From Thermoplasmata archaeon (GTDB lineage Archaea; Thermoplasmatota; Thermoplasmata; Lutacidiplasmatales; UBA184), in contig JAGWLG010000005.1 in assembly GCA_028864975.1 (NCBI GenBank), forward strand, positions 1 to 64,000: a stretch of 64,000 bases of DNA, read 5' to 3'. The notes beneath the pieces are model-generated. The model made no database searches, was not told where the DNA came from, and saw only the letters and a list, made by a program, of their open reading frames with translations. Shown piece by piece: positions 4,732-56,202 of the stretch; within the stretch, counting starts at the first letter, position 1; each line of letters opens with the position of its first letter. Position numbers and translations under genes: made by a program.

Positions 4732-4826
4732 GGGCCGTGACGGAAAACTCTGATGCGGAAAGCGTCAGGTCCTGCCGCCCACCGGTCGGGTCCTCGAGTT
4801 TAAGGTGGGGCACCTCTGAGCCGGCC

Positions 4827-38354: not shown

Positions 38355-41300
38355 TCACGGAAGCACGGAGGCGGGAGGGGGCGGAGGTCTCCGTGCGTCC
38401 CGTTCCATCGCGGAGGCGATGGCACGGCCCTGTTCCTCGAGCCGTGATCGCTGCCTCCGTTGAAGCCGAACGAAGGCCACCGCCAGCGCCATCCCGACCA
38501 AGGCGGCCCCTCCACCCAGGGCGCCGACTTCCAAGGGGGATAGCGTGGTCGATCGCGTCTGCGCAGTGCCGTTGACAGTGATGAGGAGGCTCGACGCGAC
38601 ATTCCTTCCGCCGCCGTCGCTGACCTCTCCGTAGACCGTGTAGACCCCGGGCCTGGCGTAGCTGTGCCCCACCGACGCCGAGGGGCAGCCCTGGCACGAG
38701 GGGGAGGGGAAGGCCTGAGAGAAGCCCGTCGAGCCATCCCCAAAGGAGAGGTTCAGGTGACGCGTCCCTACGCCACCCGACACGTCGTAATAGACCATCG
38801 TGGAGAGAGGCGCGGGTCCCCACCGTGGTGTCGCAGAGAGGTCGAGCACGAGGGCGGGTATCGTGCAGTTGCAGCCAACCTGCACCGACTCGGAGAGCTG
38901 CGCCACTACCTCGTGACCCGCACTGTCGAAGACTTCGACGGTCGCAGTGTACGAGCCCGTAGAGGCGTACGAATGCGATGCGACCATGCCCGTCCCGTTG
39001 GTCCCGTCGCCAAAGGACCAGGAAGCCACGTAGGGGGAGGTCCCTCCCGACGCATTCGCCCAGAAGGTCACCGGGTGGCCAGCAGGCGCAGGGTTGGGCG
39101 AAGATGCCACGGTTGTCGACATCGGACACCCCGTGCAACCTCCACGGACCTGGACGGTGATCGACGCGTTCGACGTCCCTCCCGTCGAATCGGTGAGGAA
39201 GACCGCGGCCGCGAAGGCGCCGGCAAGCGAATAGAGGTGGGTCACGTTGAGCCCGTTCTGACTTCCTCCGTCCCCGAAGTACCACACGGCCGCGTACCCA
39301 CCGGAACCCCCGGTGGGGTTGCTCTGGAAGGCGACGGAAAGGGGGGCGACCCCTGAGCTCGGGTTCGCGGACGGATTCGCGGTGAGCTTGGCACCGCCAC
39401 CGGTCACCGTGATCGTGAGCCCTGCGATCGACCATGCGCCCCGACTGTCGGTGACGTTCAAGGTGACCAGGAACGACCGGACGGCGGTGAAGGTGTGTGT
39501 CGGGTCCTGAACCACGGAGGTGCTTCCGTCCCCAAAGGACCAAGCGTAGGCGACGTACGTGCCGCTCCCACCGGTGGCTCCTCCTGTGAAGGAAACCGCC
39601 AGGGGTGCGGCCCCCGACATCGGTGTGGCCGAAGGGTGGGCGAGCAGGGAGGCGTTACTGTTCGAGACCGTGACCCACACCCAGGAGGACGCAAAGTGCC
39701 CAAGCCGATCCTCCACCACGACCGTCGAATTGTACGTCCCGCTGGCATTGTAGGTGTGCCGAGGGTTCTCGGCGTACGAGTGGGGGGTCAGGTCCCCATA
39801 GCTCCAGTTCCAGGTGTATGGGGGTGCACCGCCGAAGGCGGTCGCATTGAACAGGACCTTGAGTGGAACCGCGCCGGAGCTGGGGGTGGCGGAGGGAGTG
39901 ACCGCGAGCATCGGTGGGGAGAGCGCGGTGATCGTCAGGGACGCGTTGGACGTGGCTCCGCGCGAATCGGTGACCTCCAGCGTCGCGGGGAAGGTCCCCG
40001 GGGTCGTGTAGGCGTGGGCGGGGTTCTGGACGGCGGAGGTCCCCCCGTCGCCGAAGTTCCAGCCCCACGAGTAGGGGGTGCTCCCTCCGCTCGCACCGCC
40101 CGAGAAGGTGACGGTGAGGGGCACCGCACCGGACAAGGGTGTCGCGGAGGCCGAGGCCTGGAGCGTCGAGTTGGAGTTGCGGACGTAGACCCAGACCTCG
40201 GTCGAGCCCAAGCGACCGAGTGCGTCGGTCACCTGAAGCCCTGCAAGATAGGTTCCACTCGCGTTGTACGTGTGCACCGGATCCTGTGCGAGGGACTCCG
40301 CGCTGCCATCCCCATACACCCAGCGCCAGGTGTACGGAGCGCTACCTCCCCGCACCGTGCCGGAGAAGCTCACCGTCAAAGGTACGGCTCCCGAGGGGGG
40401 TGAGGCGACGGCGGAGGCCACCATCCCTGCCGAAACGTTCGACCAAATCCCTGCCCGATAGGTCCACGTGTCGTTGAGCTGGCTCCACAGGTAGTTCGCC
40501 CCTCCAAAGAGCACCACGTACCCGTCGGACCAATCGAACGTGGTCGCCTCCGCCATGCGGTTCAGAGGGTACTCCCAGGCGCAGGGACTGCCGCGCTGAC
40601 ACCAGATCCGGTCATTGTTCTGGGGATTGGTCCAGTTCCCGCTGTGGAAGGTCCACCAGATCTCCGGGTCGCATCCACCCCTCAGGCAGTTGGTCGCGTT
40701 GTCGTCGGCGTTCGTGAAGAAGGGTACGGCATCCGCTGCGTCGTACGTGAATCCATCGTCGTACGGCTCGGGTGGCACGGGCCCGGAGGGATGCAGGAGG
40801 ACCCACGAGCCCCCACGCCAGGCCCACGTGTCCTGTAGCATGTTCACCCAGAACCCGCCGGGCTCCGGATTGACCACCGTGGTGCCGCCGAAGAGCACGA
40901 CTTCATGGTCCGCCGCGTCGTAGGTGAGCCCCGCTCCGGCGCGCGCGGAGGGCGAGGTCGGCGGGAAGAGCTCCGTCCAGGCGCCCCCGACGAACGTCCA
41001 GGTGTCACCGCAGACCGTCCCACAGCCTCCATTCCCCCCTCCGAACAGGAGCATGTAGCCGTCCGCGGAGTCGTTCGTGAAGGCAGCGGCCTCTCTCGAT
41101 GGAGGCGAGACGGGGGGGTGGAGCTGGCTCCAGACCCCGGCTCGGAAGGTCCAGGTCTGTCCTGCCGCAGCGCAGGTCCCTCCGGGGGCGCTCCCTGTCC
41201 CGGCGAAATAGACCACCTCGCTGTCGAAAGGGTCGAACGCCATCGAGGAGGCGACGCAGCTCTCTGGAAAGGACGAGGGGAAGAGCTCGGTCCAGACCCC

Positions 41301-41774
41301 CGCGTGGTACGTCCAGGTCTCGGTCCCGTTCTCCGGCCCTGACCCCGTGGCCCCCAAGAGCAGAACATAGCCGTCCGCGGCGTCGTAGGTCATCGCACTG
41401 TCATAGATCACGAAGCCTGGAGGAGAAGCGCCCCCTGTCGTGGACAGGGCTCGTCCAAGCTCCCCCTCCGGGGGAAGCGGTCCCAACACGCTTTGCGAAC
41501 ACCGAAGGTTGTTCGAGAGTTCAAGGGGGCGCAGGGGGAACATCATCGCGGGATGGGTCTGGTCGCAGGAGCGGCCACCTGCACCGGCCCCGATGGGACC
41601 GAACGAAGCGAGCCCGGTGGGGCCTGGCATCGGGGGGCGGAGAGGGGCTGCCCTCGCACCGACGGGAGGGATGGCCACGAGCACGGCGAGACCGACCGTC
41701 ATGACGAGCAAGAGTGCGCTCGTCGAGGGAAGGGGCGGACGGCCCCTACATGAGCGTGCCGAGCAGGTGTTCAT
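38355..41774 (-). CDS. Kelch beta-propeller + 7 PKD domains + C-terminal TM surface protein
   Basis: MTYDAADGY.LLFGG repeats; seven SG..PL.V.F...GG..PY.W.FGDG units; TM LGGGAALVGMALAVAFV. ATG 41774 preferred. Confidence 0.9.
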   Translation of the reverse strand: MNTCSARSCRGRPPLPSTSALLLVMTVGLAVLVAIPPVGARAAPLRPPMPGPTGLASFGPIGAGAGGRSCDQTHPAMMFPLRPLELSNNLRCSQSVLGPLPPEGELGRALSTTGGASPPGFVIYDSAMTYDAADGYVLLLGATGSGPENGTETWTYHAGVWTELFPSSFPESCVASSMAFDPFDSEVVYFAGTGSAPGGTCAAAGQTWTFRAGVWSQLHPPVSPPSREAAAFTNDSADGYMLLFGGGNGGCGTVCGDTWTFVGGAWTELFPPTSPSARAGAGLTYDAADHEVVLFGGTTVVNPEPGGFWVNMLQDTWAWRGGSWVLLHPSGPVPPEPYDDGFTYDAADAVPFFTNADDNATNCLRGGCDPEIWWTFHSGNWTNPQNNDRIWCQRGSPCAWEYPLNRMAEATTFDWSDGYVVLFGGANYLWSQLNDTWTYRAGIWSNVSAGMVASAVASPPSGAVPLTVSFSGTVRGGSAPYTWRWVYGDGSAESLAQDPVHTYNASGTYLAGLQVTDALGRLGSTEVWVYVRNSNSTLQASASATPLSGAVPLTVTFSGGASGGSTPYSWGWNFGDGGTSAVQNPAHAYTTPGTFPATLEVTDSRGATSNASLTITALSPPMLAVTPSATPSSGAVPLKVLFNATAFGGAPPYTWNWSYGDLTPHSYAENPRHTYNASGTYNSTVVVEDRLGHFASSWVWVTVSNSNASLLAHPSATPMSGAAPLAVSFTGGATGGSGTYVAYAWSFGDGSTSVVQDPTHTFTAVRSFLVTLNVTDSRGAWSIAGLTITVTGGGAKLTANPSANPSSGVAPLSVAFQSNPTGGSGGYAAVWYFGDGGSQNGLNVTHLYSLAGAFAAAVFLTDSTGGTSNASITVQVRGGCTGCPMSTTVASSPNPAPAGHPVTFWANASGGTSPYVASWSFGDGTNGTGMVASHSYASTGSYTATVEVFDSAGHEVVAQLSESVQVGCNCTIPALVLDLSATPRWGPAPLSTMVYYDVSGGVGTRHLNLSFGDGSTGFSQAFPSPSCQGCPSASVGHSYARPGVYTVYGEVSDGGGRNVASSLLITVNGTAQTRSTTLSPLEVGALGGGAALVGMALAVAFVRLQRRQRSRLEEQGRAIASAMERDARRPPPPPASVLP

Positions 41775-41800
41775 CGCCCATCCACTCGGTCGTCGAGGGA

Positions 41801-41835
41801 CAAAAAGGCCTCTCGGAGATACGCCCGAGATACGC
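41801..41835 (-). promoter_or_regulatory. Promoter: GCGTATC-N4-GCGTATC-N11-TTTTTG (tandem direct repeat + TATA-like box)
   Basis: Plus strand caaaaaggcctctcggaGATACGCccgaGATACGC; same spacing as 47130-47164. Confidence 0.7.
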
Positions 41836-41908
41836 CGTTCCGGGGTCGCAACACGGCGCGGGGAGCCTCCCACCCGCGTCGAAGGAGGGAGCCGAACGGT
41901 CCTCGTCC

Positions 41909-43327
41909 TCATTCCTGCGGGGCCGCCTCCTTGGCCGCTCCTCGACCAGGATCGAGGGTCGCACCCTTCCGTCGAAGCTCCTTGGCCAGGGCCTCTCCGC
42001 GGCCGGTCAATCGGTAGACCTTCATGCGACGTGGTCGGCCGCGCACGTGGCGAACGTCGACCAGAAGGATCCCTCCGGCCTCCAGACGTCGTAGGACATT
42101 GGTCAGCGCGTTCTGACGGACCCCGAGGGTCTCGGCCATGCCCTGCTGGGTGAACGCAACCGGTGCGACATCGTCCGCGTGAAGCGCCCCTTGCAAGGCC
42201 AGGTGGACGACGACCCTCTCGGAGACGCGAAGGGCGTCCCGGGACGGAGGTGTCGCCTTCGGACGCGAAGGCCGGGCCGGCCTCGCGGTCACGCCCTGGG
42301 TCGCTCCGGAAACCTCTGGGGGCTTCGGAGGGGATATCGGAACCGTTCCAGGGACGGCCACGGCAACCACGGCCTCGACCGAAGAGCTCGCAGTGGGGGG
42401 GCTCGTGATGGCCGTGGGGGTCGTGGCCACGCTTCCGTCAGTCGTGGCCTGGGTATCAGCGACCTCTCTGCGAGCCTTCGTTTCCCGGCTCTCCTGACCC
42501 GTTCGTATCCCCCCAAGTCGCAGCAGGGCGTAGAGCGCGAGCCCTCCCGAGGCCGCTCCCAGGCCTAGCGCCCAGAACAGAGGCGTGATCTCCAGCGAAG
42601 AGGGAGAAGCCGCCGCGGCGGTGACGTTGACCCACGTCGTGGCTGACGCCGGGGTGCCTTTGGAATCGGTGACCGTGAACGTGACCAGATACGTTCCCGC
42701 ATCTCGGTACGAATGATCGAGCGCGATCCCCGTTCCGCTCGATGCGTCCCCGAAGGTCCAGGAGTAGGAAGCGTACGTGCCGGTGCCTCCCGTCACGCGG
42801 CCCTCGAAGGAGACCGTCAGCGGCGCTTCCCCTCCCAGAGGCGAGGCCACGATCGAGACCTCTAACGCCGAAGGCACGACATGGATGGTGATGTTGGCGC
42901 TCGAGGTCCTGAGGCCCTCGTGCACCGTAACGGTCGTGTCGAAGTACCCCGCGTGGCCGTAGGTGTGGTATCTGGGGTCCCAGGGCGCATGGCTCGAGAC
43001 GTTGACATCGGGAGTTCCGTCGCCGAAGCTCCAGTTGTAGCTTGTCGGTACCCCCGAGATCGCGGTCGCGTTCAACAAGACGACCAGGGGAACCCCGCCG
43101 TAGCTAGGGGTCGCGGAAAGCGCGACGAGGAAGAGGGGCTCCGGGGAAGTCGAGGCCTCCTCCGGCGCCGTCCCCGCCCCAGGGGTCCCTGAGAAGAAGA
43201 GGAGGAGGACCCCGAGGAGCAGGGTGATGACCAGGCGCCGAACGTGGCGTACGTAGCACCTCAAGGCGAATGTCGGCACCCTGTAGGAGCGATATGGGCA
43301 TTTGCTCCCGGGGCCGGTACCCCACAC
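41909..43327 (-). CDS. Membrane-tethered transcription factor: signal/TM + 2 PKD + TM + C-terminal winged HTH
   Basis: RRLVITLLLGVLLLFF; two PKD units; TM PLFWALGLGAASGGLALYALL; FTQQGMAETLGVRQNALTNVLRRLEAGG...RMKVYRLTGRG. The start may be GTG 43279. Confidence 0.85.
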   Translation of the reverse strand: MWGTGPGSKCPYRSYRVPTFALRCYVRHVRRLVITLLLGVLLLFFSGTPGAGTAPEEASTSPEPLFLVALSATPSYGGVPLVVLLNATAISGVPTSYNWSFGDGTPDVNVSSHAPWDPRYHTYGHAGYFDTTVTVHEGLRTSSANITIHVVPSALEVSIVASPLGGEAPLTVSFEGRVTGGTGTYASYSWTFGDASSGTGIALDHSYRDAGTYLVTFTVTDSKGTPASATTWVNVTAAAASPSSLEITPLFWALGLGAASGGLALYALLRLGGIRTGQESRETKARREVADTQATTDGSVATTPTAITSPPTASSSVEAVVAVAVPGTVPISPPKPPEVSGATQGVTARPARPSRPKATPPSRDALRVSERVVVHLALQGALHADDVAPVAFTQQGMAETLGVRQNALTNVLRRLEAGGILLVDVRHVRGRPRRMKVYRLTGRGEALAKELRRKGATLDPGRGAAKEAAPQE

Positions 43328-43333
43328 CGGCGA

Positions 43334-43765
43334 TCAGGCCTTCTCTCTGAGGACGGCCGCCGTCTTGCTGAGCTCATCAGGGCTCGTAGGTTGGACCTTC
43401 ATCTCCCACCATTCCTGGAGTGCGAGGTCGTCCCCCTCCCGCCGGGGGACAACGTGGATGTGGAGGTGCCTCACGCTCTGCTCCGCCGATCTGCCACTCG
43501 AGACGAACAGATTGTTGCCCGTGACCTCGAGGACCTTGCGAAGGCGAAGAGCGGTCCACCGCGCGAGCTCGGCCACCTCCGCCCAATCCTCGGGAGTCAC
43601 CTCTGTGAGGTCCGCCGCATGGGCCTTCGGGATGACCAGCGAGTGTCCCCAGCTTATCGGGTTGACATCGAGGAAGGCGAGGGCGCGGGGCGACTCGCGG
43701 ATCCGGTGGGAAGGGATCTCTCCCTTGGCGATGGCGCAGAAGACGCAGGGGGGTCCGCTACCCAT
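43334..43765 (-). CDS. HIT family nucleotide hydrolase
   Basis: CVFCAI, AFLDVNP, GHSLVIPK, HLHIHVVPR. Confidence 0.96.
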   Translation of the reverse strand: MGSGPPCVFCAIAKGEIPSHRIRESPRALAFLDVNPISWGHSLVIPKAHAADLTEVTPEDWAEVAELARWTALRLRKVLEVTGNNLFVSSGRSAEQSVRHLHIHVVPRREGDDLALQEWWEMKVQPTSPDELSKTAAVLREKA

Positions 43766-43828
43766 GCAACCAAGAGCGAGCGGGGTGGCTTTGAACCTAC
43801 CGACATGGGCTCCTAAGCGAAGCTCGGC

Positions 43829-46800
43829 TCACCGCGCGCCAAACGGAGGCATCTCGAGACTCCTCTGACGGAGGGCGATCGCCCCGCTCTGAGGGTCGAA
43901 CTCGATCCTCTCGGAAAGGATCGTGGGGGGGTGTCGGACCTGTGTCGCCCCCCCTGCTGGGGTCGATGGCGACGGTTTCGAAGTGTCGCCCGGAGCCGGA
44001 GACGCGCCGGACGCAACAAGGCCCCCGGACGCTCTCCTTCGAGGGGGGCGAAGGAGGAGGAAACCCGCCAGAGCCGTGATCCCCACCGTACCAAGGACCA
44101 GTCCCGCCACGATGGCCGGGTCCCCAAGGGCCGAGCCCGACCTGGCCCCACCTGGCGCACTGACCTGGACGTACAGCACGCTGCTGATACCCCGTCGCCC
44201 CGATGCATCGGTCACCAGGACGAAGACCGCATACTCGCCCGTCATCGCGAACGTGTGCGTGGTGGAGAGCGAGGTCGAGCTGAACGTGGTCCCATCTCCG
44301 AAGTTCCAGAGAACCTGATACGGCACAGCTCCGCCCTGTACGACCGCCGTGAACTGCGTCGGACTGCCCTCTCGCGGGAAGGACGAGCTCCAGAAGCTGA
44401 CGTTCAGAGGAAGGTCCCCTCCCCCGCAGGATGTCGCGTTGACGATGGCGATCGCGGGAAGGGTCGCCGAGTCCCCCACTTGGTCCTCCACGGTGAGACG
44501 GGGATGATAGGTTCCCGGGACCGAGTAGTTGTACGAGATGGTCGCGGGGCCCTGGACCGTGCCCGCTCCGGTGAAGTTCCAGAGGAAGGTGTACGGGGGG
44601 ACTCCCCCCGTCGCGGAAGCCTGAAAGACGACGTTGACCGGCGCGCAGGCGCTGACGCTGGTCGCCGTGGCCGATCCCACGAGGACGGTGCCGTTCCCTC
44701 CCCCGCCGCTCTCGTTGACCTGGATGCGCAGCGACGCGATGGCGCTGTTCCCCCCGCTGTCGTTGACGAGAACGGTGGCCTCGTAGGTACCGGGGGTCGG
44801 GTAGGTATAGGCCGGGCAGGCCTCGGAAGACGCTCCCCCGTTCCCGAAGGTCCACGCATAGGTGTAGGGCGCGAGCCCTCCCGCGACCTGGGCACAGAAC
44901 TGGACCGCGAGCGGCGCCGTACCGCTCGTAGGCTCGCCCGAGACCTGGATCAGGACCGACGAGGAGCCGTTAGGGTCGACCGTGACCATCAACGCGGCGC
45001 TTGTCGCAGAGTTCCCGCGGGCATCCGTGACGAGAAGCTGGACAGTGAAAGTTCCGGTCGCGTAGATGGTGCAACTGAAGCTCGCGTTCCTGGGAGCGGT
45101 GCAGGGGACCCCCGTCCAAGCGAAGGCATAGGGGGGAGCGCCGCCGGAGGCCGCTCCGGTGAACTGGACGAGCAAAGGCGCGACCCCGGTCGTCGGATCC
45201 GCGGAAGCCGTGGCCGAGAGCGCTGGGGGTGAGGTGACGACGACGGTCACGCTGGTCGATGCGGAAGCGCCCGTCGAGTCGGTGGCCACGACGGTGGCGG
45301 TGAAGGTTCCTGGCGTCGAATAGATGTGACTCACCGTGGCCCCCGTGGCCGTCGAACCGTCGCCGAGGTCCCAGCTCCAAGAGTAGGGGGGCGATCCCCC
45401 CGCCGTGGCGGCGTCCAGGGTGCAGGGAGTTCCAAAGCCGACGGGGTCCGGCGTGGCGCTCGCCGCTACATGGAGCGTGGTCGAACTGGTCACGTTCAGC
45501 GTCCAGGTGTCACCAAAGAGGGTGGTCGACGTGCCGCCCCCGAAGTAGAGGACGTACCCCTCGGCGGGGTCGTAGGCCATGGCGGCGCCGGCACGGCCGT
45601 CGGGCATCGCCGTGAGCAGACTCGTCAAGTTCGTCCAGTTCGCTCCCGACAGGCTCCACAGCTCTACACAGCTGGTCGGGCCGCTGCAGGAATGCCGCGG
45701 CCACGTGTCCGTGAAAGGGAGGAGGACCCCTTGAGCGGCCGGATCGTCGACCATCTGCTCCCACCCCCCGAAGGGCGGCTCTGGGCTCCACGTATCGACC
45801 TTCCATGCCCCGTTCTGGTACAGACAGGTCCCGTAGGTGTCGTTCCCCCCTACGGAGACCAAGTAGGCGTCGGTCGAGTCGAAGGTGAGAGGGTCAAGGA
45901 GGGTGCAAGAGTCGACCGCAGCATCCTGCCACCAGGTCCCCGCGTGGTAGAAATCGAGCGGGCTCGCTGACGGGGTAGGGTTCGGGTAGCGCCCGATCAA
46001 GGCTACCGCAGCCGCGACCGGGTCGTAGGTAAGGTCCGGGGCGTACGACCATGACCCGAGGGACGAGGGAAGGGTCCCTTCCAGCTGCCACTGGTCATTG
46101 GAGAAGACCCAGACATCGTTCAGACCACGGACCGAGCTGTTGGACCCGCCCACGAGGAGGAGGTACCCGTCCGCAGCGTCGTACGTCATCATCGCGCCGT
46201 AGCGCGGTGAGGGGGCGGTCGAGAGTCCCGCCGAGAGGTTGGTCCAGACCCCGTGCTCGAAGGCCCACGTGTCGCCGAGGGGGGCGCTCCTCGCGCCCGC
46301 TCCCCCGAAGAGGAGCACGGCCTGCATGGCCGGGTCGTAGGCGGCCGCCGCCCCCGTCCGAGCCGAAGGGGAGGCAGGGGTGGTGAGGAGGGTCCAGGCA
46401 GCGGATACCGTCGGAGGCGTCACCGTGATGGTGAGATTGACGAACGCATGCCAAGGCTGGGCCTGGGTATCGATCGCCTCGAAGGTCACGAGATAGGTCC
46501 CTGGGGCTGTGAACGTGTGGGCACCGAAGGTCCAGGTGCCGGTCCGGGCGTAGCAGTAACTGTTGCTCGGCCCCGCCCTCGCCCCATCGCCGTAGTCGAA
46601 GCTGCAGTCATAGTAGTAGTAACCGGCGGGGTCCCCCCTCACGGAGGTCTCAAACCCGACGGTGAGCGGCGCGGGACCCGCCGTCCTCGAGGCGTTCGCC
46701 CAGGCTTGCAGAACGAAGGAGGGCGACACTCCCGCCGGAGCGCCGTCGGTTTGAGGACCCGATGGGCCCTCTACCACGCTGCCGCGCGCGAGCGTTTCTG

Positions 46801-47095
46801 CCCAAGGGGGTGCGAGCTGCGGTCCGAGCCGTTGACCCGGGAGCTGCCAGTGGTCGACCGGCTCCCACAGGTGGGCCATGGCGTCCGATCGGACCTCCGT
46901 GGGGGTCGGCGAGTGGGCAGCCAACGACAGCGCCCCCGACACCGGGTCCGATAGCGGGCGTCCTGCATGGACAGCAAGCCCCGCTGGGAGGATGCTCAGA
47001 AGGAGCATCATGACCAAGAGGAGCACCATCGCCGTATCGGTCGAGCTCCTGGAGGGTCTGGGGCAGCAGCCCATTGACGGGCGCGATGCATTCAT
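43829..47095 (-). CDS. PKD + Kelch beta-propeller + 5 PKD + C-terminal TM surface protein
   Basis: Signal MVLLLVMMLLLSIL; AAYDPA..AVLLFGG repeats; GG..PY.W..GDG units; TM IVAGLVLGTVGITALAGFLLL. Confidence 0.9.
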   Translation of the reverse strand: MNASRPSMGCCPRPSRSSTDTAMVLLLVMMLLLSILPAGLAVHAGRPLSDPVSGALSLAAHSPTPTEVRSDAMAHLWEPVDHWQLPGQRLGPQLAPPWAETLARGSVVEGPSGPQTDGAPAGVSPSFVLQAWANASRTAGPAPLTVGFETSVRGDPAGYYYYDCSFDYGDGARAGPSNSYCYARTGTWTFGAHTFTAPGTYLVTFEAIDTQAQPWHAFVNLTITVTPPTVSAAWTLLTTPASPSARTGAAAAYDPAMQAVLLFGGAGARSAPLGDTWAFEHGVWTNLSAGLSTAPSPRYGAMMTYDAADGYLLLVGGSNSSVRGLNDVWVFSNDQWQLEGTLPSSLGSWSYAPDLTYDPVAAAVALIGRYPNPTPSASPLDFYHAGTWWQDAAVDSCTLLDPLTFDSTDAYLVSVGGNDTYGTCLYQNGAWKVDTWSPEPPFGGWEQMVDDPAAQGVLLPFTDTWPRHSCSGPTSCVELWSLSGANWTNLTSLLTAMPDGRAGAAMAYDPAEGYVLYFGGGTSTTLFGDTWTLNVTSSTTLHVAASATPDPVGFGTPCTLDAATAGGSPPYSWSWDLGDGSTATGATVSHIYSTPGTFTATVVATDSTGASASTSVTVVVTSPPALSATASADPTTGVAPLLVQFTGAASGGAPPYAFAWTGVPCTAPRNASFSCTIYATGTFTVQLLVTDARGNSATSAALMVTVDPNGSSSVLIQVSGEPTSGTAPLAVQFCAQVAGGLAPYTYAWTFGNGGASSEACPAYTYPTPGTYEATVLVNDSGGNSAIASLRIQVNESGGGGNGTVLVGSATATSVSACAPVNVVFQASATGGVPPYTFLWNFTGAGTVQGPATISYNYSVPGTYHPRLTVEDQVGDSATLPAIAIVNATSCGGGDLPLNVSFWSSSFPREGSPTQFTAVVQGGAVPYQVLWNFGDGTTFSSTSLSTTHTFAMTGEYAVFVLVTDASGRRGISSVLYVQVSAPGGARSGSALGDPAIVAGLVLGTVGITALAGFLLLRPPRRRASGGLVASGASPAPGDTSKPSPSTPAGGATQVRHPPTILSERIEFDPQSGAIALRQRSLEMPPFGAR

Positions 47096-47522: not shown

Positions 47523-47764
47523 TCCTGTTCCGGGCTCTCGGGCACCGAGGGTCCGTGGTCTGCGATGACGAGGAGGGCCCCGGGACCCTGAGTCGTTGTG
47601 TCGTCCTCCACGGGGACGGGAGAGGTGGAGCACCCGAACCCCACTCGAAGAGATGCTGCTCCTCGGTCGGGCCCTTCTTCGGGGAGCATCTCCTCCCGTG
47701 AACACCTAATGCCCCTCAAGATTCTCCTACGAACGTGGGGCATTCCCCGTCAAGTTCCCGAGCG

Positions 47765-50700
47765 ATGAAGACCGGGACCCCGAGCTCGGACATCCCAGGA
47801 CTCTCGAGGTCTGCCCAGCTCGTGGGCCGGCGAGAGGTCATGGCCGAGCTCCGACGGATCCTTCTGGCCGCGAAGGAGGGGACCGGCTCCACGGTCGCGC
47901 TCACAGGCCCCGGTGGGATCGGGAAGACGAGCCTCCTCCGGTGGCTGGACGAGGAAGCGCGGGGCGAGGGCTTTGCAGTGCGGATGGGTTTCTGCTTGCA
48001 GGGGATCGACGCGCCTTTCTTTGCCTTCGAGCAGGTCTGGGGAGCATCGTCAGCCATACGTGACCCACCGGAGAGCCCGGCCGGGTCTAGTGCCGCGGCC
48101 GCGGCGGACGACGACGGGGCCCGGCTCGCGGCCGGGCCTGCGCAGCACGCCTCCATGGAACTCCGGCCGCAAGAGACGGGAGCCCTCCCGGGACGTCCTC
48201 TCCCTTTCCTCGGGCAGGCCGATGACGAGATCCCCCCGTCGGTCACGCTCCTACGATACCGGGAAGAGCTCGCGCAGGCCTCGAGCCAACGCCCGTTCCT
48301 CCTCCTGCTTGACGACCTGCAGTGGGCGGATCCCCAGTCCCTTCAGGCGCTGCAGTTCCTCGCTCGAAACCTGAGCGAGCTCCGCGCGTTCGTGGTCGTC
48401 GCCTTACGCGACGACCCGCACTCCCTCCAGGGGACCGACCCGGCCGAGGGACCGACGGTCGGGGAGACCATCGACCAACTGGTACGGGAGCGGACCCTTC
48501 GCCGCTTCTCCCTCTCCCCCTTCACTCGCGGAGAGGTCCGCCGTCTGGTCGCCAACGCGCTCGGGGGGGGCGTAGTCTCCGGAGAAAGCGAAGCGATGCT
48601 CCAGATCCTGACCGAACGAAGCGGAGGGATCCCCTACTACGTCGAGGAGCTCCTCCAGCAGCTGCGTTCGGAGGGCTACGTCGAGCGCGTCCGTGGAGGT
48701 TGGAAGCTCCGGCCCCCGGAGTCCTGGAAGGGTGCGCGTCGCTCGGGGGAAGGGCCCCGAGCGCCCATCCCCCTCTCGCTCCAGCGCCTGCTCAGGGCCA
48801 AGGTCTCGCCGCTCTCCCCGTCGGAGCGACGCGTTCTCGAGGTCGGGGCGGTGGTGGGGCTCCGCTTCGACCTTGAAGCCGTTGCCGCCGTCACGGGGCT
48901 CGGGGGTGCCGAGACCGAGTCGGTCTCCCGAAAGCTCTCGGAGGGGAGCCCGCTCCTGGTCCCCCCGGGAGGGGGTGGGGCTTCCTGGTCGTTCGTCCAC
49001 CCTCTGCTGTGGGAATACCTCCTCCACGAGCTGGCCCCGGGGTCCTTGCGGCGCATCTCTCAGGACCTCGCGACGTGGTGGGAGGTCCATCGCCCTCAGG
49101 AGATCGGGCGGATCGCGGGGTTCTACCATGCCGCTGGCGATGCGCGACGGGGACCGCCATCGATCCGTCGGGCGCTCGAGCATGCCCGACGGTCCCTCGC
49201 CTTGGACCAGGTCGAGACCTACCTGGGGTGGCTGCGGGAGCTGCTCCTGGAGCAGGGAACTTCGACGGCCCTCGTCGTCGAGGAGCAGTTGTTCATCGTC
49301 GACGCCCTGCGCTCGCTGGGAGGCTTCGAACATGGTCGTCGGGTCCTCGAGGGCCTCACCGACCTTCCGATCCCTCCCCCCCTGCGAGGCGAGGTCCTGG
49401 TCCGTCTGGCGGATCTGGTCAAGAACTACGATCCAGAGCGGAGCCAGCGACTCCTGACCGACCTCGAGCAGGGGACTTCGGTCGCCGGGCTGGTGCCCTA
49501 CGGGACCCTGCTGGGACGGATCCGCGTCGCCCAGGCCTATCTCCGAAACGAACAGATGGACTACTCCAAGAGCCTGGAGCTCGGCAGCGAGGCGCTCTCC
49601 CTCCTCGGGCCGAAGGGCGACCCGTACGAACGATCTCGTGTGCTCTCGTACCGCGCGTCCGCCCTGGCCAATCTCGGCCGGTTCGAGGAGGCGGCCGCCG
49701 CCTCAGGGGGGGCCCAGGAGATCGCCGAGAACGCGGGGTTGATGGGGATCCTCGAGCAGGCCAAGGTGGGCGCCGCCTATGCTCAGCTCGCCCGGGGCCA
49801 CGTTCGAGAGGCCCACGAGGACTTCCTTGCCGCCACCTCGCTCGCCCGACGGTCCGGCCACATCCCCCTCGTAGTGCACGGGCTGCTCTGCGACTGTCTT
49901 TCCCTCCTCGAGTTGGGTCGGTCCGACGAAGCGCGAAGCTTCGCGGAAGAGGCGAAGCTCCTCGCACGGCAGTTCGGCATGCAACGGTACGTGGCCGAGG
50001 CGGAGGGCACTTTGGCCGCTATCGCCCTTCGTCGTGGTGACACCATCAACGCGGTCCGGCACGGGAAGATCGCGCTGGGCTTGTCCAGTGGCATGGGGGA
50101 GGGCCAGCGGGTCAGCTTCCGTCTGACCCTGATCCGCGCTTACGCCGCCAGGGGGGAGGGGGCGGCGGCGCTGCGGGAGCTCTCCGAGGTCCTTCCCCCC
50201 GGGACGGACCCGAAAAGCGCCAGCTATCCGGACATCGCGCTCACGGGCGCTGAGGCCCTTGAGGCCAACGGACGGTCGGAGGAGGCCCGGGCGTTCCTGG
50301 AGGCCTCCCTCTCAAGGTCGCGCGAGATGCGGCTGCCCCTCATCGAAGCGGACTCGCTCCTCGCGCTCGCGGTCTGGGAGGAGCGCCACGGGGGGGCGGC
50401 GGCCTCGAGTCGACGCCGAAAGGAGGCTGAAGCTATGCTGGCACCGCTCTCGCTCTCCCTCCATGGGCGCCCACCGCCCCTCCTCTCCACCCTGCATGCC
50501 TCCCGCCGCCCTCGCCCCTCCCGGAGCGAGCGAAGGACCCCCGGCCTCTCCACGGGAGACCTCGTCCTCCTGCATCTCCAGCGCAACCTCCGCCACAGCG
50601 CCCTCCTGAGCGACGGAGGGGCCGCACCGGTGGCCCTCACGCAGGAAGGGATCGGAGAGGAACTCGGGCTGTCTCAGGGACGTTTGGCCGCCCCGCTCCA

Positions 50701-50830
50701 ACGGCTCGTGCAACGAGGGCTCGTGAAGTGCGCGGTGTGCCACGTGCAAGGGTTCGAAAGGCGCCGAAAGGCCTACGCGCTCACTCGCAAAGGACTTCTT
50801 GTGGCGAAGGGGCTCCAACCCCGCCGTTGA
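47765..50830 (+). CDS. STAND-type NTPase (AAA_16-like) + TPR repeats + C-terminal winged HTH
   Basis: Walker A GPGGIGKT, Walker B LLLLDDLQWAD, SGGIPYYVEEL, helical repeats, LTQEGIGEELGLSQ...RRRKAYALTRKG. Confidence 0.9.
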   Translation: MKTGTPSSDIPGLSRSAQLVGRREVMAELRRILLAAKEGTGSTVALTGPGGIGKTSLLRWLDEEARGEGFAVRMGFCLQGIDAPFFAFEQVWGASSAIRDPPESPAGSSAAAAADDDGARLAAGPAQHASMELRPQETGALPGRPLPFLGQADDEIPPSVTLLRYREELAQASSQRPFLLLLDDLQWADPQSLQALQFLARNLSELRAFVVVALRDDPHSLQGTDPAEGPTVGETIDQLVRERTLRRFSLSPFTRGEVRRLVANALGGGVVSGESEAMLQILTERSGGIPYYVEELLQQLRSEGYVERVRGGWKLRPPESWKGARRSGEGPRAPIPLSLQRLLRAKVSPLSPSERRVLEVGAVVGLRFDLEAVAAVTGLGGAETESVSRKLSEGSPLLVPPGGGGASWSFVHPLLWEYLLHELAPGSLRRISQDLATWWEVHRPQEIGRIAGFYHAAGDARRGPPSIRRALEHARRSLALDQVETYLGWLRELLLEQGTSTALVVEEQLFIVDALRSLGGFEHGRRVLEGLTDLPIPPPLRGEVLVRLADLVKNYDPERSQRLLTDLEQGTSVAGLVPYGTLLGRIRVAQAYLRNEQMDYSKSLELGSEALSLLGPKGDPYERSRVLSYRASALANLGRFEEAAAASGGAQEIAENAGLMGILEQAKVGAAYAQLARGHVREAHEDFLAATSLARRSGHIPLVVHGLLCDCLSLLELGRSDEARSFAEEAKLLARQFGMQRYVAEAEGTLAAIALRRGDTINAVRHGKIALGLSSGMGEGQRVSFRLTLIRAYAARGEGAAALRELSEVLPPGTDPKSASYPDIALTGAEALEANGRSEEARAFLEASLSRSREMRLPLIEADSLLALAVWEERHGGAAASSRRRKEAEAMLAPLSLSLHGRPPPLLSTLHASRRPRPSRSERRTPGLSTGDLVLLHLQRNLRHSALLSDGGAAPVALTQEGIGEELGLSQGRLAAPLQRLVQRGLVKCAVCHVQGFERRRKAYALTRKGLLVAKGLQPRR

Positions 50831-50948: not shown

Positions 50949-53900
50949 ATGCGCTTCTCGACGGAACTCCGGTCGAACTCCCTGCCCGCGATCTCGCTCT
51001 TGCTCTTGATCATCGGGCTCCTTCTGGTCAGCGGGGCGCTGGTCGGCGGAACTTCCTCCCTCTTCAGCTCCCGGGAAAGCGCGGCGGTCCTCCCCACCGC
51101 GCTCCATCCCTCGACCGCGGCGGGGGCCTCGTCCCTCGCCGCGACCCCTTCCTACAGCAACGGCGCGACCTACCACTTCGACGGGAGCAACGGGAACGAT
51201 GGGCGGTCGGTCTGGGGGGTCAGCCCCTCGAGCTGCCAGTCCGTGGCGGGGTCGCGCCTGTGCATCCCCACCTCGGAAGGCTTCCTGGCCTACGATAACG
51301 GGGCTAAGGACCCCAACGGAGTCTCCGTCAACGCCCCGTGGTACATGGGCTCCTGCCGATGGAGCTGGGGAGGGAACGACTACGGGAGCGCCCCACCCTG
51401 TCTGGACATCTCGGGCACTTCCGGGCTGCCTCACGTCTGCATCCTCGCCAGCAATGGTCGCTCGGTCTCGGCCTACATCGATGACTCCGGCCCGGCCCCC
51501 TTCACGGGTCGCTACGGGGCCGGCGCGGCGACGATGAGCCATCTCGGGCTCTGGAACAATGCGGACCCCGACCCCGGTTACATCTATGCCGGGAGCTCCA
51601 AGGCCTTGGACGTCCACGATGGGAACGGCGCTTTCTGGGTCGATTTTCTAGGCTTCACAACGGCCGGTACGGGCCACTCCTGCACTGGGGGCGGCGGTAG
51701 CGGGGGAGGGAGTGGAGGAGGGAGCGGCGGGGGTGGAGGAAGCGGGGGACACTGCAACCTCTACGGCCCCCGGGTGTGCCATCCGCTAGATTCCAACCCG
51801 ACCCCAGGCGCGTGGTACCACATCCGGAGCGGCGACACGCTCTCGGGGATCGCATCCCGAGCGTACGGCCGTGCCAGCCTCTACACCATGATCGCGCACG
51901 TCGACCACATCGCCAATCCCGGTCTCATCTCGTCGGGATACTACCTCTGCATCCCTCATTCCAACGGCGGGGTCTGCCGGGCCGCGGGGAGCGGGGGTGG
52001 AGGTGGAGGCTCCGTCGCGTGCAACCTCTACGGCCCGCACAAGTGCACGCCCCTCTCCACCGCACCTTACCCGGGTGACTGGTACCGGGTCCACCGCGGA
52101 GACACACTCGGTTCGATCTCGCAGCATGCGTACGGGAACTCGAACAAGGCGTCGTTCATCGCCAACAAGGACCGGATCACCCACCCGAAAGTCCTGACCT
52201 CGGGCTGGTACCTCTGCATCCCCAAGACCAGTGGTGCCCTGTGCAAGGGTGGGCCGTCGGGCGGGGGCGGCGGGGGCGGGCACGGCGGTGGCGCGCACCC
52301 CACGTTCATGCCGTGGGTCTGCCAGTTCTGTTCCTGGTCGGGTTCGCGGCCCGCCTTCGCGAAGGAGTACGCGACCCTCGCCGGGGACATCCCGTCCATT
52401 TCCCAGGAGGGCTACTACCTCACGAGCTCTGGGGGGTTCGGCTCTCGCGGATACGCGGGGACGCTCAACGACCTGACGCCTTGGGCGAAGCAGCATCGCT
52501 CGGCGATGTTCCCGATGATCACCTCGTGCAACATATACGACCTGAACGCGTTCCTGACCTCCCCGTCGCTCTGGACCCCCTTCATCCACCTGGCGGTCGG
52601 CACGGCGAGCGCCAACGGCTACGCCGGCTACAACGTCGATTTCGAACCCGACCCCGGCTGCAACGGGGGGTCCGTCAACGGCAGGGATGCGGCCGCCTAT
52701 TCACAGTTCATGAGCTCGTTCGCGAGCGCCCTCCACGCCAAGGGGCTCAAGCTCCAGGGCGACTTCGCCCTCTGGAGCCCCAACTTCTGGTCCCTATCGA
52801 ACATGGGCCGCACCGGCGTGGACGACTGGGTCCTGATGGATTACACGTGCTCCGTGAGCTCGTTCCGAACGGCCGCGTCGACCGCCTTGCACTCGATCCA
52901 CGTCTCCCACTTGGGGCTGGGGCTGGACCCCGAGTACTGCGCCGGGTCTCCGCACGAGCTCTCCGACCTTCAGCAGGAGGTTCGTGCGGCCCAGCAGGAC
53001 AAGGTCAACTTCCTCGCCTACTGGGCGCTGGATGACGGCCCTGCCGCCATGCCCAGCGGGCTCTGGCCGACGATCCACGCCTTCCTCCTCGGCGGAAGCT
53101 CTGGGGGAGGGGGCGGTGGTGGCACGGGCGGCGGCCAGTGCGGAGGAAAGACGTACTGCCGCAGCGCGGTCGTAGCCTACGCCGACAAGTACTGGGACCG
53201 CGCGGTTTCGGACGGCTACTTCTTCTGGGACAGCTTGTGCCCGACGGGTCCCGGCTACCCGGCCCACCTAGGGAACGCGCACTACCTCTCCGGGTGCTTG
53301 CAGTACCACGGGGTCGACTGCGCCCACTTCGTCTCCAGCGCGATCGCGGCAGGTGGCATCTCCTTCTCGCGTGACTCGCACCGCTATGGAGGCTCGATCA
53401 CCGGTGACGTCAACGCCCAGGACCTGGTGAACTACCTCGTCTTCTCCGGCCTGGCCTACGTGGTCTCAAGCCCCTCCCATCTCCAGGTCGGCGATGTCGT
53501 CGGCTACTACGAGGGTTCGGGGGGCGGCTGGGGCATCGGTGGGACCGTGAACCACGTCGCGGTCGTGGACGCCACCGGTAGTGGCGGCCCGTGGGTGGAC
53601 GCCCACACGGGCTCCCAGCACCATGTCTACTGGAGCATGGGCGGCGGGATGGGTCCGTGGGTCCTGGTCCACATCAAGAGCCAGCGACCGTTCGTGAGCA
53701 GCGCGAGCTCGACCCCCACTTCGTCGGCCGCAGGGTCGGTCGCGACGAAGTCGGGTTCCGCACCGACCCATCTTTGGGCGATGGTCGAGGGCGGGGTCCT
53801 GACGACGCCGGTCAGCGTCCGTCTATCCTCCCCTTCCGAGGTCGTGAAGGTCGAGCAAGGGCCAAAGGGAGCTCCCACCGCTGTTCCTCTCCTGTGGGCG

Positions 53901-54080
53901 GAGCTCGCCGTGCTGGTCGGGTCTCCTTTCGGAGCGTTCCTGCTCAGCGTCGAGGTCGCAGCTCTCGCAGCCCTCGGGATGCTCGTGGTCATCTCTGGGA
54001 GAAAGAGTGGGACCACTTTGTCCTGTGCGCCTCGCGAGCTCGAGCCCAGGTCCGGGCGAAGTGCTCCCGGCGGGATTTGA
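50949..54080 (+). CDS. Membrane-anchored multi-domain putative peptidoglycan hydrolase: RlpA-like DPBB + 2xLysM + GH18 + Amidase_6
   Basis: Signal peptide; NGRSVSAYIDDSGP; YHIRSGDTLSGIA and YRVHRGDTLGSIS; GYNVDFE, LMDY; YCRSAVVAYADKYW, DCAHFVS, NHVAVV, DAHT; C-terminal TM. Confidence 0.88.
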   Translation: MRFSTELRSNSLPAISLLLLIIGLLLVSGALVGGTSSLFSSRESAAVLPTALHPSTAAGASSLAATPSYSNGATYHFDGSNGNDGRSVWGVSPSSCQSVAGSRLCIPTSEGFLAYDNGAKDPNGVSVNAPWYMGSCRWSWGGNDYGSAPPCLDISGTSGLPHVCILASNGRSVSAYIDDSGPAPFTGRYGAGAATMSHLGLWNNADPDPGYIYAGSSKALDVHDGNGAFWVDFLGFTTAGTGHSCTGGGGSGGGSGGGSGGGGGSGGHCNLYGPRVCHPLDSNPTPGAWYHIRSGDTLSGIASRAYGRASLYTMIAHVDHIANPGLISSGYYLCIPHSNGGVCRAAGSGGGGGGSVACNLYGPHKCTPLSTAPYPGDWYRVHRGDTLGSISQHAYGNSNKASFIANKDRITHPKVLTSGWYLCIPKTSGALCKGGPSGGGGGGGHGGGAHPTFMPWVCQFCSWSGSRPAFAKEYATLAGDIPSISQEGYYLTSSGGFGSRGYAGTLNDLTPWAKQHRSAMFPMITSCNIYDLNAFLTSPSLWTPFIHLAVGTASANGYAGYNVDFEPDPGCNGGSVNGRDAAAYSQFMSSFASALHAKGLKLQGDFALWSPNFWSLSNMGRTGVDDWVLMDYTCSVSSFRTAASTALHSIHVSHLGLGLDPEYCAGSPHELSDLQQEVRAAQQDKVNFLAYWALDDGPAAMPSGLWPTIHAFLLGGSSGGGGGGGTGGGQCGGKTYCRSAVVAYADKYWDRAVSDGYFFWDSLCPTGPGYPAHLGNAHYLSGCLQYHGVDCAHFVSSAIAAGGISFSRDSHRYGGSITGDVNAQDLVNYLVFSGLAYVVSSPSHLQVGDVVGYYEGSGGGWGIGGTVNHVAVVDATGSGGPWVDAHTGSQHHVYWSMGGGMGPWVLVHIKSQRPFVSSASSTPTSSAAGSVATKSGSAPTHLWAMVEGGVLTTPVSVRLSSPSEVVKVEQGPKGAPTAVPLLWAELAVLVGSPFGAFLLSVEVAALAALGMLVVISGRKSGTTLSCAPRELEPRSGRSAPGGI

Positions 54081-54164
54081 ACCCACGTTGGAGGGTTTCC
54101 TCGGCGGAGTACGTCGCTTCGCCTCGAAGGCCCTCTATCCTTGACCGGACTAGACTACGGGAGC
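54062..54164 (-). tRNA. tRNA-Glu(TTC) with a 28-nt intron at 37/38 (54097-54124)
   Basis: Acceptor GCTCCCG/CGGGAGC, anticodon stem GAGGG/CCCTC, T-loop TTCAAAT, bulge-helix-bulge CCTT/GAGG with CG^A and AA^A bulges; no encoded CCA; position 33 is C. Confidence 0.85.
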
Positions 54165-54256: not shown

Positions 54257-54901
54257 ATGACCTCCAAGAAAAGGCCCAACGTGCCCCACAAGGATGCCCC
54301 CGCCGCAGATCCCCTGGCGGGATCGATGAACGCCGGGCTCGGGGACCTGGTGGGGGGCTTGGTCGGGGGGATCCTCGAGCAGGTGAAGCAGCTGGCAGGA
54401 TGGGTCGGCCATCCTCTGGCCCAGCCGCTCGACACGGCCGAGGCCCAACTCACGAAGGGGGCCACCGGCGGCTCGGTCTCTTCCGCCGAGATGGCGAAAG
54501 GCCTCGAGGTCCAGACCCGGGGATTGACGGGGGCCACGGTCCATGTGGTCGGGAGCGACACCTCCTCGGGGGTCAACGTGGGTCAGGGTGCGGACTGTGT
54601 CTGGGTCGTTCTCGTGGGGGATGAGGAAAGGTTGGACCACGCGTTCCAAGCTCTTAGGACCGAGATCTCTGAAGAGAACACGAAGTACCCGGCTTGCCAT
54701 GATGTGGTCTTCTGGACCCGCAAGTGGGACGCCACCGAGTGGTCGAAGGCCTTCGGGGCCGGCCTGGGCCCGCTCGCCGCCAAGCCGCTCTGGGCCAAGC
54801 TCTGGGATGCGAACGGCACCCTCGTGGGTCCGGTGGCGAGAGCACCCCCGGCGCTCGTGCCGATGGGAGACCTGAAGCTCGATCTCAGTGGCGGGGCCTA
54901 A
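54257..54901 (+). CDS. Hypothetical protein
   Basis: 214-aa ATG ORF divergent from the tRNA, with a 4-bp convergent overlap with hxlA. Confidence 0.7.
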   Translation: MTSKKRPNVPHKDAPAADPLAGSMNAGLGDLVGGLVGGILEQVKQLAGWVGHPLAQPLDTAEAQLTKGATGGSVSSAEMAKGLEVQTRGLTGATVHVVGSDTSSGVNVGQGADCVWVVLVGDEERLDHAFQALRTEISEENTKYPACHDVVFWTRKWDATEWSKAFGAGLGPLAAKPLWAKLWDANGTLVGPVARAPPALVPMGDLKLDLSGGA

Positions 54902-56202
54902 CCCACCTTCTCCCATCGCTCGAGCTTCTGGACCGAGGAGAGGGTCGATCCTCGCTTGATCTCCTCTCTCACGCGGTTCTCGTGCTCGAGCACGTCGAGC
55001 GCACGGTTCGCGATCTCCTGGGCCCGTTCTCGGGGCACCACGACCACGCCGCTCGCGTCCCCGACGACCCAGTCGCCGGGTCGGACCTTCTGGCCCCCGC
55101 AGACGATCTCGACACCGATCTCCCCGTGCCCCTTCGCCTCCCCCGCATCTGGGGCGATGTTCCGTGAGAAAAGGGGGAACCCCAGGTCCATGATCGAGTC
55201 GATGTCCCGGGCGGCCCCGTCGATGACCACCCCCGCCAACCCGCGTCCGTGGGCCGACCAGCTCGCAAGCTCGCCCCACATCCCCGTGTGACCCCCTCCG
55301 GCGTCGACGACGATCACGTCACCCGGCTGGGCACGGTCGATGGCCTCCACGGGTTTCGCCCAGTCTCCGTCCATCGTCCGCACGGTGAGGGCGGGCCCCA
55401 CCATCTTCGTGCGGAAGTCCTTGAGGTGCGGAAGGATCCCATGCATCGCGCCCTTCCGCTGGAGGGCGTCGGTGACGTTCGGGGCCGAGACCTTGAGAAA
55501 GGCCTCGCGGATCTCGGTGGCCCCATACTTTCGGAAGAGCTCGGTCTTGACCGGGGTCAACGTGTCGAGGGCCTTCCGAACGTTCCGCGTCGCCTCGGTG
55601 ATCTTCTCGGCCTTCGTGATCGCCCCTCCCACGATCACCACGCGAGCCCCCGCTTCGGCGGCCTTCGCCGCGGTCTCCGAGTTCAGCCCCCCCGCGACGG
55701 CGACGGGGAGTGGGGAGGCCTTGCAAAGCTCACGCAGCGCTTCGAAGGGGTCGACCCCACGCATCTGCTGGTCGATGCCGATGTGGAGGCAGACATAGGC
55801 GGCCCCAAGCTCGTGGGCCCTCTTGGCGCGCGCGATGGGGTCGGCGACCGCCAGAAGGTCGACCACGACCTGGGCCCCGTACTTCTCCCCGCCGCGGACC
55901 GCGTCCGCGATGGTGTCGTCATCGCTGGCCCCCAGGACCGTCACCAGGTCGGCCCCCGCCTTGGCCGCGATCTCCACCTCGAAGGAGCCGGTGTCCATGA
56001 TCTTCATGTCGGCCACGACGCGCTTGTCTCGGAACGCCTTCTTGAGCTCTCGGACCGCGTTCAGGCCCTCGCTCTTGATGAGCGGAGTGCCGGCCTCCAC
56101 CCAGTCGGCGCCTCCCTCCACGGCCTCCTTCGCGGCCTGAAGGGCGCGGTGGAGGTTCTCGAAGTCCAGGGCCACTTGGAGGACCGGTCGATCGGCGGGC
56201 AT
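54898..56202 (-). CDS. hxlA: 3-hexulose-6-phosphate synthase fused to an RraA/HMG-aldolase-like domain
   Basis: LQVALD, EAGTPLIKSEG, ADMKIMDTG, HIGIDQQ, AVAGG; then VTDAL, GDWAKPVEAI, WGELAS, DGAARD, GDWVVGDASGVVVVP. Confidence 0.92.
   Translation of the reverse strand: MPADRPVLQVALDFENLHRALQAAKEAVEGGADWVEAGTPLIKSEGLNAVRELKKAFRDKRVVADMKIMDTGSFEVEIAAKAGADLVTVLGASDDDTIADAVRGGEKYGAQVVVDLLAVADPIARAKRAHELGAAYVCLHIGIDQQMRGVDPFEALRELCKASPLPVAVAGGLNSETAAKAAEAGARVVIVGGAITKAEKITEATRNVRKALDTLTPVKTELFRKYGATEIREAFLKVSAPNVTDALQRKGAMHGILPHLKDFRTKMVGPALTVRTMDGDWAKPVEAIDRAQPGDVIVVDAGGGHTGMWGELASWSAHGRGLAGVVIDGAARDIDSIMDLGFPLFSRNIAPDAGEAKGHGEIGVEIVCGGQKVRPGDWVVGDASGVVVVPRERAQEIANRALDVLEHENRVREEIKRGSTLSSVQKLERWEKVG

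Follow-up and report, generated by a model that had tools for sequence, protein, structure and literature searches.

Why would an archaeon of the Thermoplasmata, a lineage without peptidoglycan, carry a gene for a long membrane-anchored protein assembled from the modules of bacterial cell-wall enzymes? The question is raised by a single open reading frame (ORF; P0001, here called the hydrolase) in the window, the 64,000-nucleotide stretch of contig JAGWLG010000005.1 (assembly GCA_028864975.1) that was analysed. A preliminary description, made from the letters alone, had read it as a signal peptide, an RlpA-like double-psi barrel, two LysM domains, a GH18 barrel and an Amidase_6 domain, joined by Gly-rich linkers and followed by a C-terminal transmembrane (TM) segment. 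All of these elements except the RlpA-like barrel were recovered here, and the boundaries given for the ORF were correct. On balance, it is probable that the protein is a surface-tethered enzyme that binds and cuts bacterial peptidoglycan on contact, and this is the most likely of the readings considered. The features of the ORF are as follows.

50949-54080, + strand: whole ORF P0001, ATG at 50949, stop at 54078-54080, 1043 residues plus stop; domain matches confirm the reading frame
50949-51068, + strand: predicted N-terminal signal peptide or signal anchor, hydrophobic core at about residues 12-34 (Kyte-Doolittle)
51138-51689, + strand: orphan Cys-containing N-terminal domain, residues 64-247, no family or PDB match
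51687-51749, + strand: Gly/Ser linker 1, residues 247-267
51816-51956, + strand: LysM domain 1, residues 290-336 (Pfam LysM, genome scan), bracketed by Cys pairs
51987-52013, + strand: Gly/Ser linker 2, residues 347-355
52080-52229, + strand: LysM domain 2, residues ~378-427 (second Pfam stretch; NCBIfam PRK11198, residues 377-427, E 2.3e-14)
52257-52280, + strand: Gly/Ser linker 3, residues 437-444
52290-53096, + strand: divergent GH18 (beta/alpha)8 barrel, residues 448-716 (profile-PDB comparison, AlphaFold2, Foldseek, ESM Atlas)
52626-52646, + strand: GYNVDFE catalytic-motif region with N562, D564 and E566, end of strand 4
53091-53123, + strand: Gly/Ser linker 4, residues 715-725
53154-53645, + strand: Amidase_6 domain of the papain-like NlpC-P60 clan, residues 736-899 (Pfam)
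53319-53321, 53553-53555 and 53604-53606, + strand: codons of the putative Amidase_6 triad C791, H869 and H886
53646-53888, + strand: Ser/Thr/Pro-rich stalk linking the amidase domain to the membrane anchor, read from the sequence
53889-54002, + strand: predicted C-terminal TM segment, residues ~981-1018 (Kyte-Doolittle), then a short basic tail

The ATG at 50949 is a sensible start, because the alternative TTG start at 50799 overlaps the upstream gene.

A GH18 barrel between LysM and Amidase_6 domains

The middle module, residues 448-716, is a GH18 barrel that is invisible to Pfam. The region has no Pfam or NCBIfam match, and Pfam Glyco_hydro_18 gives none even at E≤5. A profile built from the four GH18 copies of the host genome nevertheless retrieved 649 relatives from a set of 1.84 billion representative proteins (214 with E≤1e-10), and 60 of the 649 were used for the alignment and profile described here. 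Within these 60, G560 and D564 never vary and E566 is retained in at least 90%, giving the consensus YxGYNIDFEP. Twenty-eight of them individually match PF00704 (best 2.3e-08), and the link of the hydrolase to the Pfam family is transitive, by way of such relatives. When compared with the PDB, the 60-sequence profile matches 4q6t (5.6e-14), 5jh8 (7.6e-13), YdhD (1.7e-10) and YaaH/SleL (4e-9 to 1e-8).

The structural predictions agree with this assignment. The AlphaFold2 model of the domain is a (beta/alpha)8 barrel (pLDDT 95.1, pTM 0.93), in which GYNVDFE, located one base from the position first given for it, is predicted to lie on model strand 113-118, strand 4 of the barrel. Foldseek ranks 4q6t (E 4.8e-14), SleL (4s3k and 4s3j, 1.6e-13) and 5jh8 at the top, with TM-scores of 0.72-0.78. 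The nearest ESM Atlas clusters are GH18 proteins of Bacillota (TM-scores 0.79-0.83, root-mean-square deviation 2.4-2.9 Å), which are fused to SH3_3, SLH or Cu_amine_oxidN1 and include a "sporulation-specific glycosylase YdhD". As judged from the model, the barrel thus falls structurally within a wall- and spore-associated subgroup from Bacillota. In the GH18 motif DxxDxDxE, the hydrolase keeps the D-x-E, and the Asp upstream of it is replaced by Asn, as it is in 4q6t and 5jh8.

The two LysM domains that precede the barrel are recognised directly. Pfam LysM (PF01476) scores 30.2 bits against a cut-off of 20.9, in two stretches, and the NCBIfam model of a LysM protein agrees. Both domains are flanked by Cys pairs. 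Behind the barrel, Amidase_6 (PF12671) matches with E 2.4e-11 and 44.4 bits against a cut-off of 23.2, over profile positions 2-153 of 163, together with a weak NLPC_P60 co-match from Pfam; a search of PDB sequences with the amidase domain alone gave no match. The motifs DCAHFVS and NHVAVV are present, and in an alignment of 12 homologues from 5 genera, C791 (DCAHF), H869 (xHVAV) and H886 (AHT) are invariant. By their sequence motifs, these residues make up a putative Cys-His-His triad, as would be expected if the domain is a cysteine peptidase or amidase of the NlpC/P60 type.

The order LysM-LysM-GH18 is common to the hydrolase and to SleL/YaaH (PDB 4S3J, 4S3K), as had been noted previously. 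SleL carries two N-terminal LysM sequences (PMC4004799), and both SleL/YaaH and YdhD (3CZ8) rank near the top of the profile and fold matches of the barrel. Identity to SleL and YdhD is only 12-18%, and the hydrolase lies below the Pfam GH18 threshold. In contrast to SleL, it also has an orphan domain at its N terminus, an Amidase_6 domain and a TM anchor, and its host is a non-sporulating archaeon, in which a spore-cortex role of the kind found in a sporulating producer has no place.

Four Gly/Ser runs separate the modules, and hydrophobic segments, called by a Kyte-Doolittle scan with a 19-residue window and a mean above 1.6, lie at both ends of the chain. The same C-terminal ending, a TM segment, is shared by the paralogues described below. 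From these signals, the hydrolase looks to be tethered to the cell surface.

The N-terminal domain is the one part whose first assignment did not hold. No match was found for it in Pfam (E≤5), NCBIfam, PHROGs or the PDB, and DPBB_1 (PF03330), the double-psi beta-barrel (DPBB) family, was not found in the host genome at E≤10 or in 301 genomes of the class. Its likeness to E. coli RlpA is confined to 18 residues, NGRSV...IDDSGP in the hydrolase versus NGRMIV..INDRGP in RlpA; hhalign aligned 18 columns at a probability of 0.23%, and the catalytic Asp of RlpA is without a counterpart in the hydrolase, as the preliminary description had itself remarked. An AlphaFold2 model from a two-sequence alignment reached a pLDDT of 28.9. 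The sole support for a DPBB identity comes from a protein-language-model search, in which hypothetical phage proteins rank first and an RlpA-like cluster ranks ninth (score 0.90), with DPBB_1 in 17% of the members of that cluster. The RlpA-like identity is accordingly unsupported.

Copies of this domain were absent from phage records (tblastn), viral contigs and metagenome contigs, and a word-indexed search with it found none among proteins of similar length and one cluster among longer ones. Its sole homologue, at 45-48% identity, comes from one species in another genus of the family (G005 / JAKAYL010000042). There (L021/L022, G005:C34), the orphan domain is fused directly to Amidase_6, followed by about eight repeats of ~40 residues, GYWLVG..DGG.F.FG.A.FYGS, and a C-terminal TM segment.

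Relatives and exchange of modules

A word-indexed homologue search with the whole hydrolase returned none, and the Gly linkers probably consumed the index words. Inspection of related genomes showed the LysM-GH18-Amidase_6-TM core in 4/4 genomes of the genus (g1). The closest copy, in G003, is 69% identical over residues 251-942 and has the same type of Amidase_6, with its N-terminal slot occupied not by the orphan domain but by a weakly SLT-like module containing MAYQES. An SLT-like module is also present, with three LysM domains, a GH18 and an Amidase_6/NlpC-P60-like domain, in a paralogue from the host genome (P0002, contig C64) and its orthologues in G001 and G002. The Pfam match of this module is weak (E 0.017) and a 6-sequence profile found no match in the PDB, so that we call it lysozyme-like only tentatively, from its sequence. 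Homologues from genus g3 have the order PKD - GH18 - SLT-like - Amidase_6, without LysM. These domain orders indicate that modules are exchanged between paralogues and between genera.

Further wall-hydrolase genes accompany this family. Two of the four GH18 copies in the host genome have the layout GH18-PKD-TM. At L006 (G000:C15; 1542-4712, - strand, and 4433-7240, + strand), a GH18-PKD-TM paralogue is divergent to a GH25 muramidase-PKD-TM protein (Glyco_hydro_25, E 3.3e-22), and this is a second wall-hydrolase locus of the host genome. Its third Amidase_6 protein (L027, G000:C94; 3330-5861, + strand) carries four PKD domains behind the amidase. L019/L020 (G025, G030), from another family of the order, combine a GH73 Glucosaminidase (E 1.3e-16) with SH3_3, Amidase_6 and more SH3_3, which is a textbook Gram-positive-type wall-hydrolase layout in an archaeon.

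The distribution of the hydrolase family is patchy: it occurs in genera g1 and g3, with matches in 0/16 genomes from five other genera of the family, while Amidase_6 as such is found in 24/301 genomes of the class. A tblastn search of plasmids yielded one weak Streptomyces GH18 match for the GH18 domain and none for the amidase domain. The GC content of the ORF equals that of its surroundings (0.67-0.69), and a recent transfer of the gene from bacteria is rejected on this ground.

A distant member of the GH18 family, the 405-residue protein P0166, is encoded in JGI metagenome 3300005860 (L025; 6001-7218, + strand), directly after genes for an Asparaginase_2 (glycosylasparaginase family) and an acetyltransferase. 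The contig is archaeal, as it carries TiaS, and the cluster may be a cassette for the turnover of N-glycans or of N-acetylglucosamine (GlcNAc) linked to Asn.

Probable substrate of the hydrolase

All of the recognisable partner modules in the lineage are peptidoglycan-directed, namely LysM, SH3_3, GH25, GH73 and NlpC/P60. Together with the wall-type GH18 subgroup and the intact catalytic residues, they therefore favour a wall enzyme held at the surface. From this we infer a substrate, a set of bond specificities and an ecological role. The N-terminal signal would direct export, and the C-terminal TM helix and Ser/Thr-rich stalk would keep the protein on the archaeal membrane, so placed that the flexibly linked modules could meet bacterial peptidoglycan on contact. 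The two LysM domains would bind GlcNAc-containing glycan strands, and the GH18 barrel, through D564/E566, would cleave after GlcNAc by a substrate-assisted mechanism, as an N-acetylglucosaminidase like SleL and YdhD. The Amidase_6 domain (C791/H869/H886) may cut either the stem peptide or the amide bond between N-acetylmuramic acid and L-Ala. As its slot is filled in relatives by a weakly SLT/lysozyme-like module, the orphan N-terminal domain is probably an extra wall-binding or wall-cutting unit. For a host without its own murein, the likely use would be to lyse neighbouring bacteria or to digest their wall debris.

Several observations weigh against the cutting of bacterial peptidoglycan. 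Firstly, LysM plus GH18 is equally a classic chitinase layout. Secondly, the LysM domains are Cys-bracketed, and one paralogue matches the LysM2 model of plant NFP, below threshold; NFP-type plant receptors bind chitin-derived signals. Thirdly, a distant member of the GH18 family adjoins a glycosylasparaginase-family gene on an archaeal contig, which suggests that some of the family, at least, act in the turnover of N-glycans. Fourthly, the GH18 Glu is lost in two homologues from genus g3, L017 (G024; VLDFTP) and L016 (G015; ILDLAP), while L014 keeps it (VVDFEP); by sequence, L016 and L017 look like pseudo-enzymes or binding modules, and a GH18 barrel can persist as a non-catalytic module. Lastly, neither MurQ nor NagA was found in the host genome (89.6% complete), so that the standard route of amino-sugar scavenging lacks support, and membrane tethering limits the reach of the enzyme. 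Killing bacteria, or harvesting their peptides or cell contents, would be a better fit than the catabolism of sugars.

The main alternative is that the protein degrades chitin or chito-oligosaccharides at the cell surface, with fungal or arthropod chitin as food, the GH18 barrel as a chitinase or chitobiase and the amidase as an accessory. In addition to the chitinase-like layout and to Cys-bracketed LysM domains that recall the chitin-binding ones of eukaryotes, with the weak NFP-LysM2 match of the paralogue, many true chitinases are present among the PDB and Foldseek matches, and LysM can bind chitin (Strock et al., PMC12352652). The best of those matches, however, belong to the SleL/YdhD/4q6t subgroup and to wall-associated GH18 proteins of Bacillota rather than to processive chitinases. 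Moreover, a papain-like amidase has no role on chitin and yet is conserved here with its triad intact, paralogues and relatives carry GH25, GH73 and SH3_3 modules, and NagA was not found in the host genome. We therefore regard a chitin-degrading enzyme as unlikely.

Still less likely is the removal of glycans from glycoproteins, in which the GH18 barrel, as an endo-beta-N-acetylglucosaminidase or chitobiase, would attack the chitobiose core of N-glycans and the papain-like domain would be a glycopeptide amidase, with S-layer glycoproteins of the host or of other archaea as targets. This proposal draws on the gene neighbours of P0166 and on the language-model neighbours of the hydrolase, which include EndoS-type GH18 clusters (0.92). 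PNGases, too, share a papain/transglutaminase-like fold. P0166, however, is distant (E about 6e-33 to the family profile) and lacks both LysM and Amidase_6; the partners of Amidase_6 in related genomes, GH73 and SH3_3, are peptidoglycan-specific, and the structural neighbours of the barrel are wall-associated GH18 proteins of Bacillota, not endo-beta-N-acetylglucosaminidases.

A third possibility, to which we give a similarly small chance, is that the protein is mainly a non-catalytic adhesin, or remodels a GlcNAc-containing polymer of the archaeal envelope, its hydrolase folds serving as glycan-binding modules. The loss of the GH18 Glu in L016 and L017, the position of the gene among those of Kelch/PKD surface proteins and the tethering, rather than release, of the protein would all suit such a function. 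The retention of D-x-E and Cys-His-His in the hydrolase and in all copies from genus g1 argues against it, as does the failure to find the murein-synthesis genes SEDS and PBP. The host genome (G000; 3.6 Mb, 124 contigs, completeness as above) contains neither a SEDS glycosyltransferase nor a penicillin-binding protein (PBP) transpeptidase that we could find, in keeping with the earlier statement that Thermoplasmata lack peptidoglycan, and its one Mur-ligase-type gene matches the same model as do genes of the murein-less controls M. jannaschii and H. volcanii. An autolysin for murein of the host's own is therefore unlikely and was rejected.

The patchy distribution of the family adds to the case for a hydrolase of bacterial walls. 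Strock et al. (2025, PMC12352652) reported modular peptidoglycan hydrolases in about 5% of archaeal genomes, prominently in Thermoplasmatota, and demonstrated the killing of bacteria by haloarchaeal M23 enzymes; the enzymes tested were secreted, and the patchy distribution was read as consistent with a weapon-like, arms-race history. The hydrolase is a modular peptidoglycan hydrolase as they define it, an archaeal protein that combines a catalytic domain (Amidase_6) and a wall-binding domain (LysM) from their lists. It shares with their proteins a murein-less archaeal host, the pairing of binding and catalytic domains, an export signal, a patchy distribution and domain shuffling. Unlike the tested M23 enzymes, which are secreted and haloarchaeal, it is by sequence multi-catalytic and membrane-anchored.

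The four-module combination had at first been described as one that was not recognised, and this claim stands only in part. The core is present in all genomes of the genus and a paralogue in the same genome, and the table of Strock et al. (PMC12352652) contains JAKAAX010000014.1_5, a protein from Thermoplasmata UBA184 entered as "LysM+Amidase_6" and assigned a Sec signal, as well as "SH3_3+Amidase_6+Glyco_hydro_25" from Aciduliprofundum boonei. Because LysM with Amidase_6 is confined to the hydrolase's genus among the genomes searched, JAKAAX010000014.1_5 is probably an orthologue or paralogue within the same family. PF00704, the GH18 family, was on the other hand not found in the domain list of Strock et al. 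(PMC12352652), so that the third enzyme module goes unrecorded in their catalogue. The concept is thus known, and the hydrolase elaborates on a type of archaeal peptidoglycan hydrolase already reported in 2025; what is new is the hidden SleL-like GH18, the multi-catalytic membrane-anchored build, the swapping of the N-terminal slot and the orphan domain.

Glycan- and peptide-cutting modules are also joined in single bacterial chains. CwlT of ICEBs1 pairs an SLT-type muramidase with an NlpC/P60 endopeptidase, and staphylococcal Atl pairs an amidase with a glucosaminidase; as in the hydrolase, linkers and wall-binding repeats accompany the catalytic domains. Unlike the hydrolase, both are bacterial and act on the wall of the producer, or on that of the recipient during conjugation, and the families and order of their modules differ.

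Archaeal peptidoglycan hydrolases have only lately been recognised as probable anti-bacterial weapons, and the tested examples are single-enzyme, secreted and haloarchaeal; the uncultured Thermoplasmata lineage considered here would keep multi-catalytic versions on the cell surface. If the substrate is confirmed, the hydrolase would show how archaea without a cell wall attack bacteria or feed on them, archaeal wall hydrolases would prove more numerous than has been counted, and enzymology would gain an orphan domain as well as a new subfamily of GH18. A bolder proposal is that members of this genus, themselves without a wall, are equipped to breach walls on contact, by means of several membrane-tethered enzymes with swappable lytic modules (LysM, GH18, Amidase_6 or NlpC/P60, an SLT-like module or the orphan domain, and GH25), and so lyse or feed on the bacteria that they touch. 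We consider this rather doubtful, if worth stating: were it true, these archaea would be predators or grazers of bacteria, as opposed to secretors of a diffusible bacteriocin, and the orphan N-terminal domain would represent a novel fold that binds or cleaves walls.

Genomic neighbourhood

The genes around the hydrolase are listed below.

38355-47095, - strand: three genes encoding large Kelch- and PKD-repeat surface proteins, just upstream of the hydrolase
47735-50830, + strand: STAND-type regulator (AAA_16 ATPase, MalT-like tetratricopeptide-repeat region, C-terminal MarR-type helix-turn-helix), ending 118 nt upstream of the hydrolase gene
54061-54164, - strand: tRNA-Arg(TCG) whose anticodon loop contains a 26-nt intron (ARAGORN intron mode, Rfam)
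54898-56202, - strand: OMPdecase/HUMPS-family domain (hexulose-phosphate synthase-like) fused to an RraA-like aldolase domain

The Kelch/PKD genes and the hydrolase gene together make up a surface-protein neighbourhood. The STAND-type protein may be a regulator of the hydrolase gene, and a TATA-like TATGTATAC lies ~40 nt 5' of the hydrolase ATG. The tRNA-Arg gene, which plain ARAGORN missed, is convergent with the hydrolase gene, whose final 20 nt it overlaps at its end. Archaeal tRNA genes often contain introns, and this intron-bearing gene, abutting that of the hydrolase, bears out the initial suggestion that the host is an archaeon.

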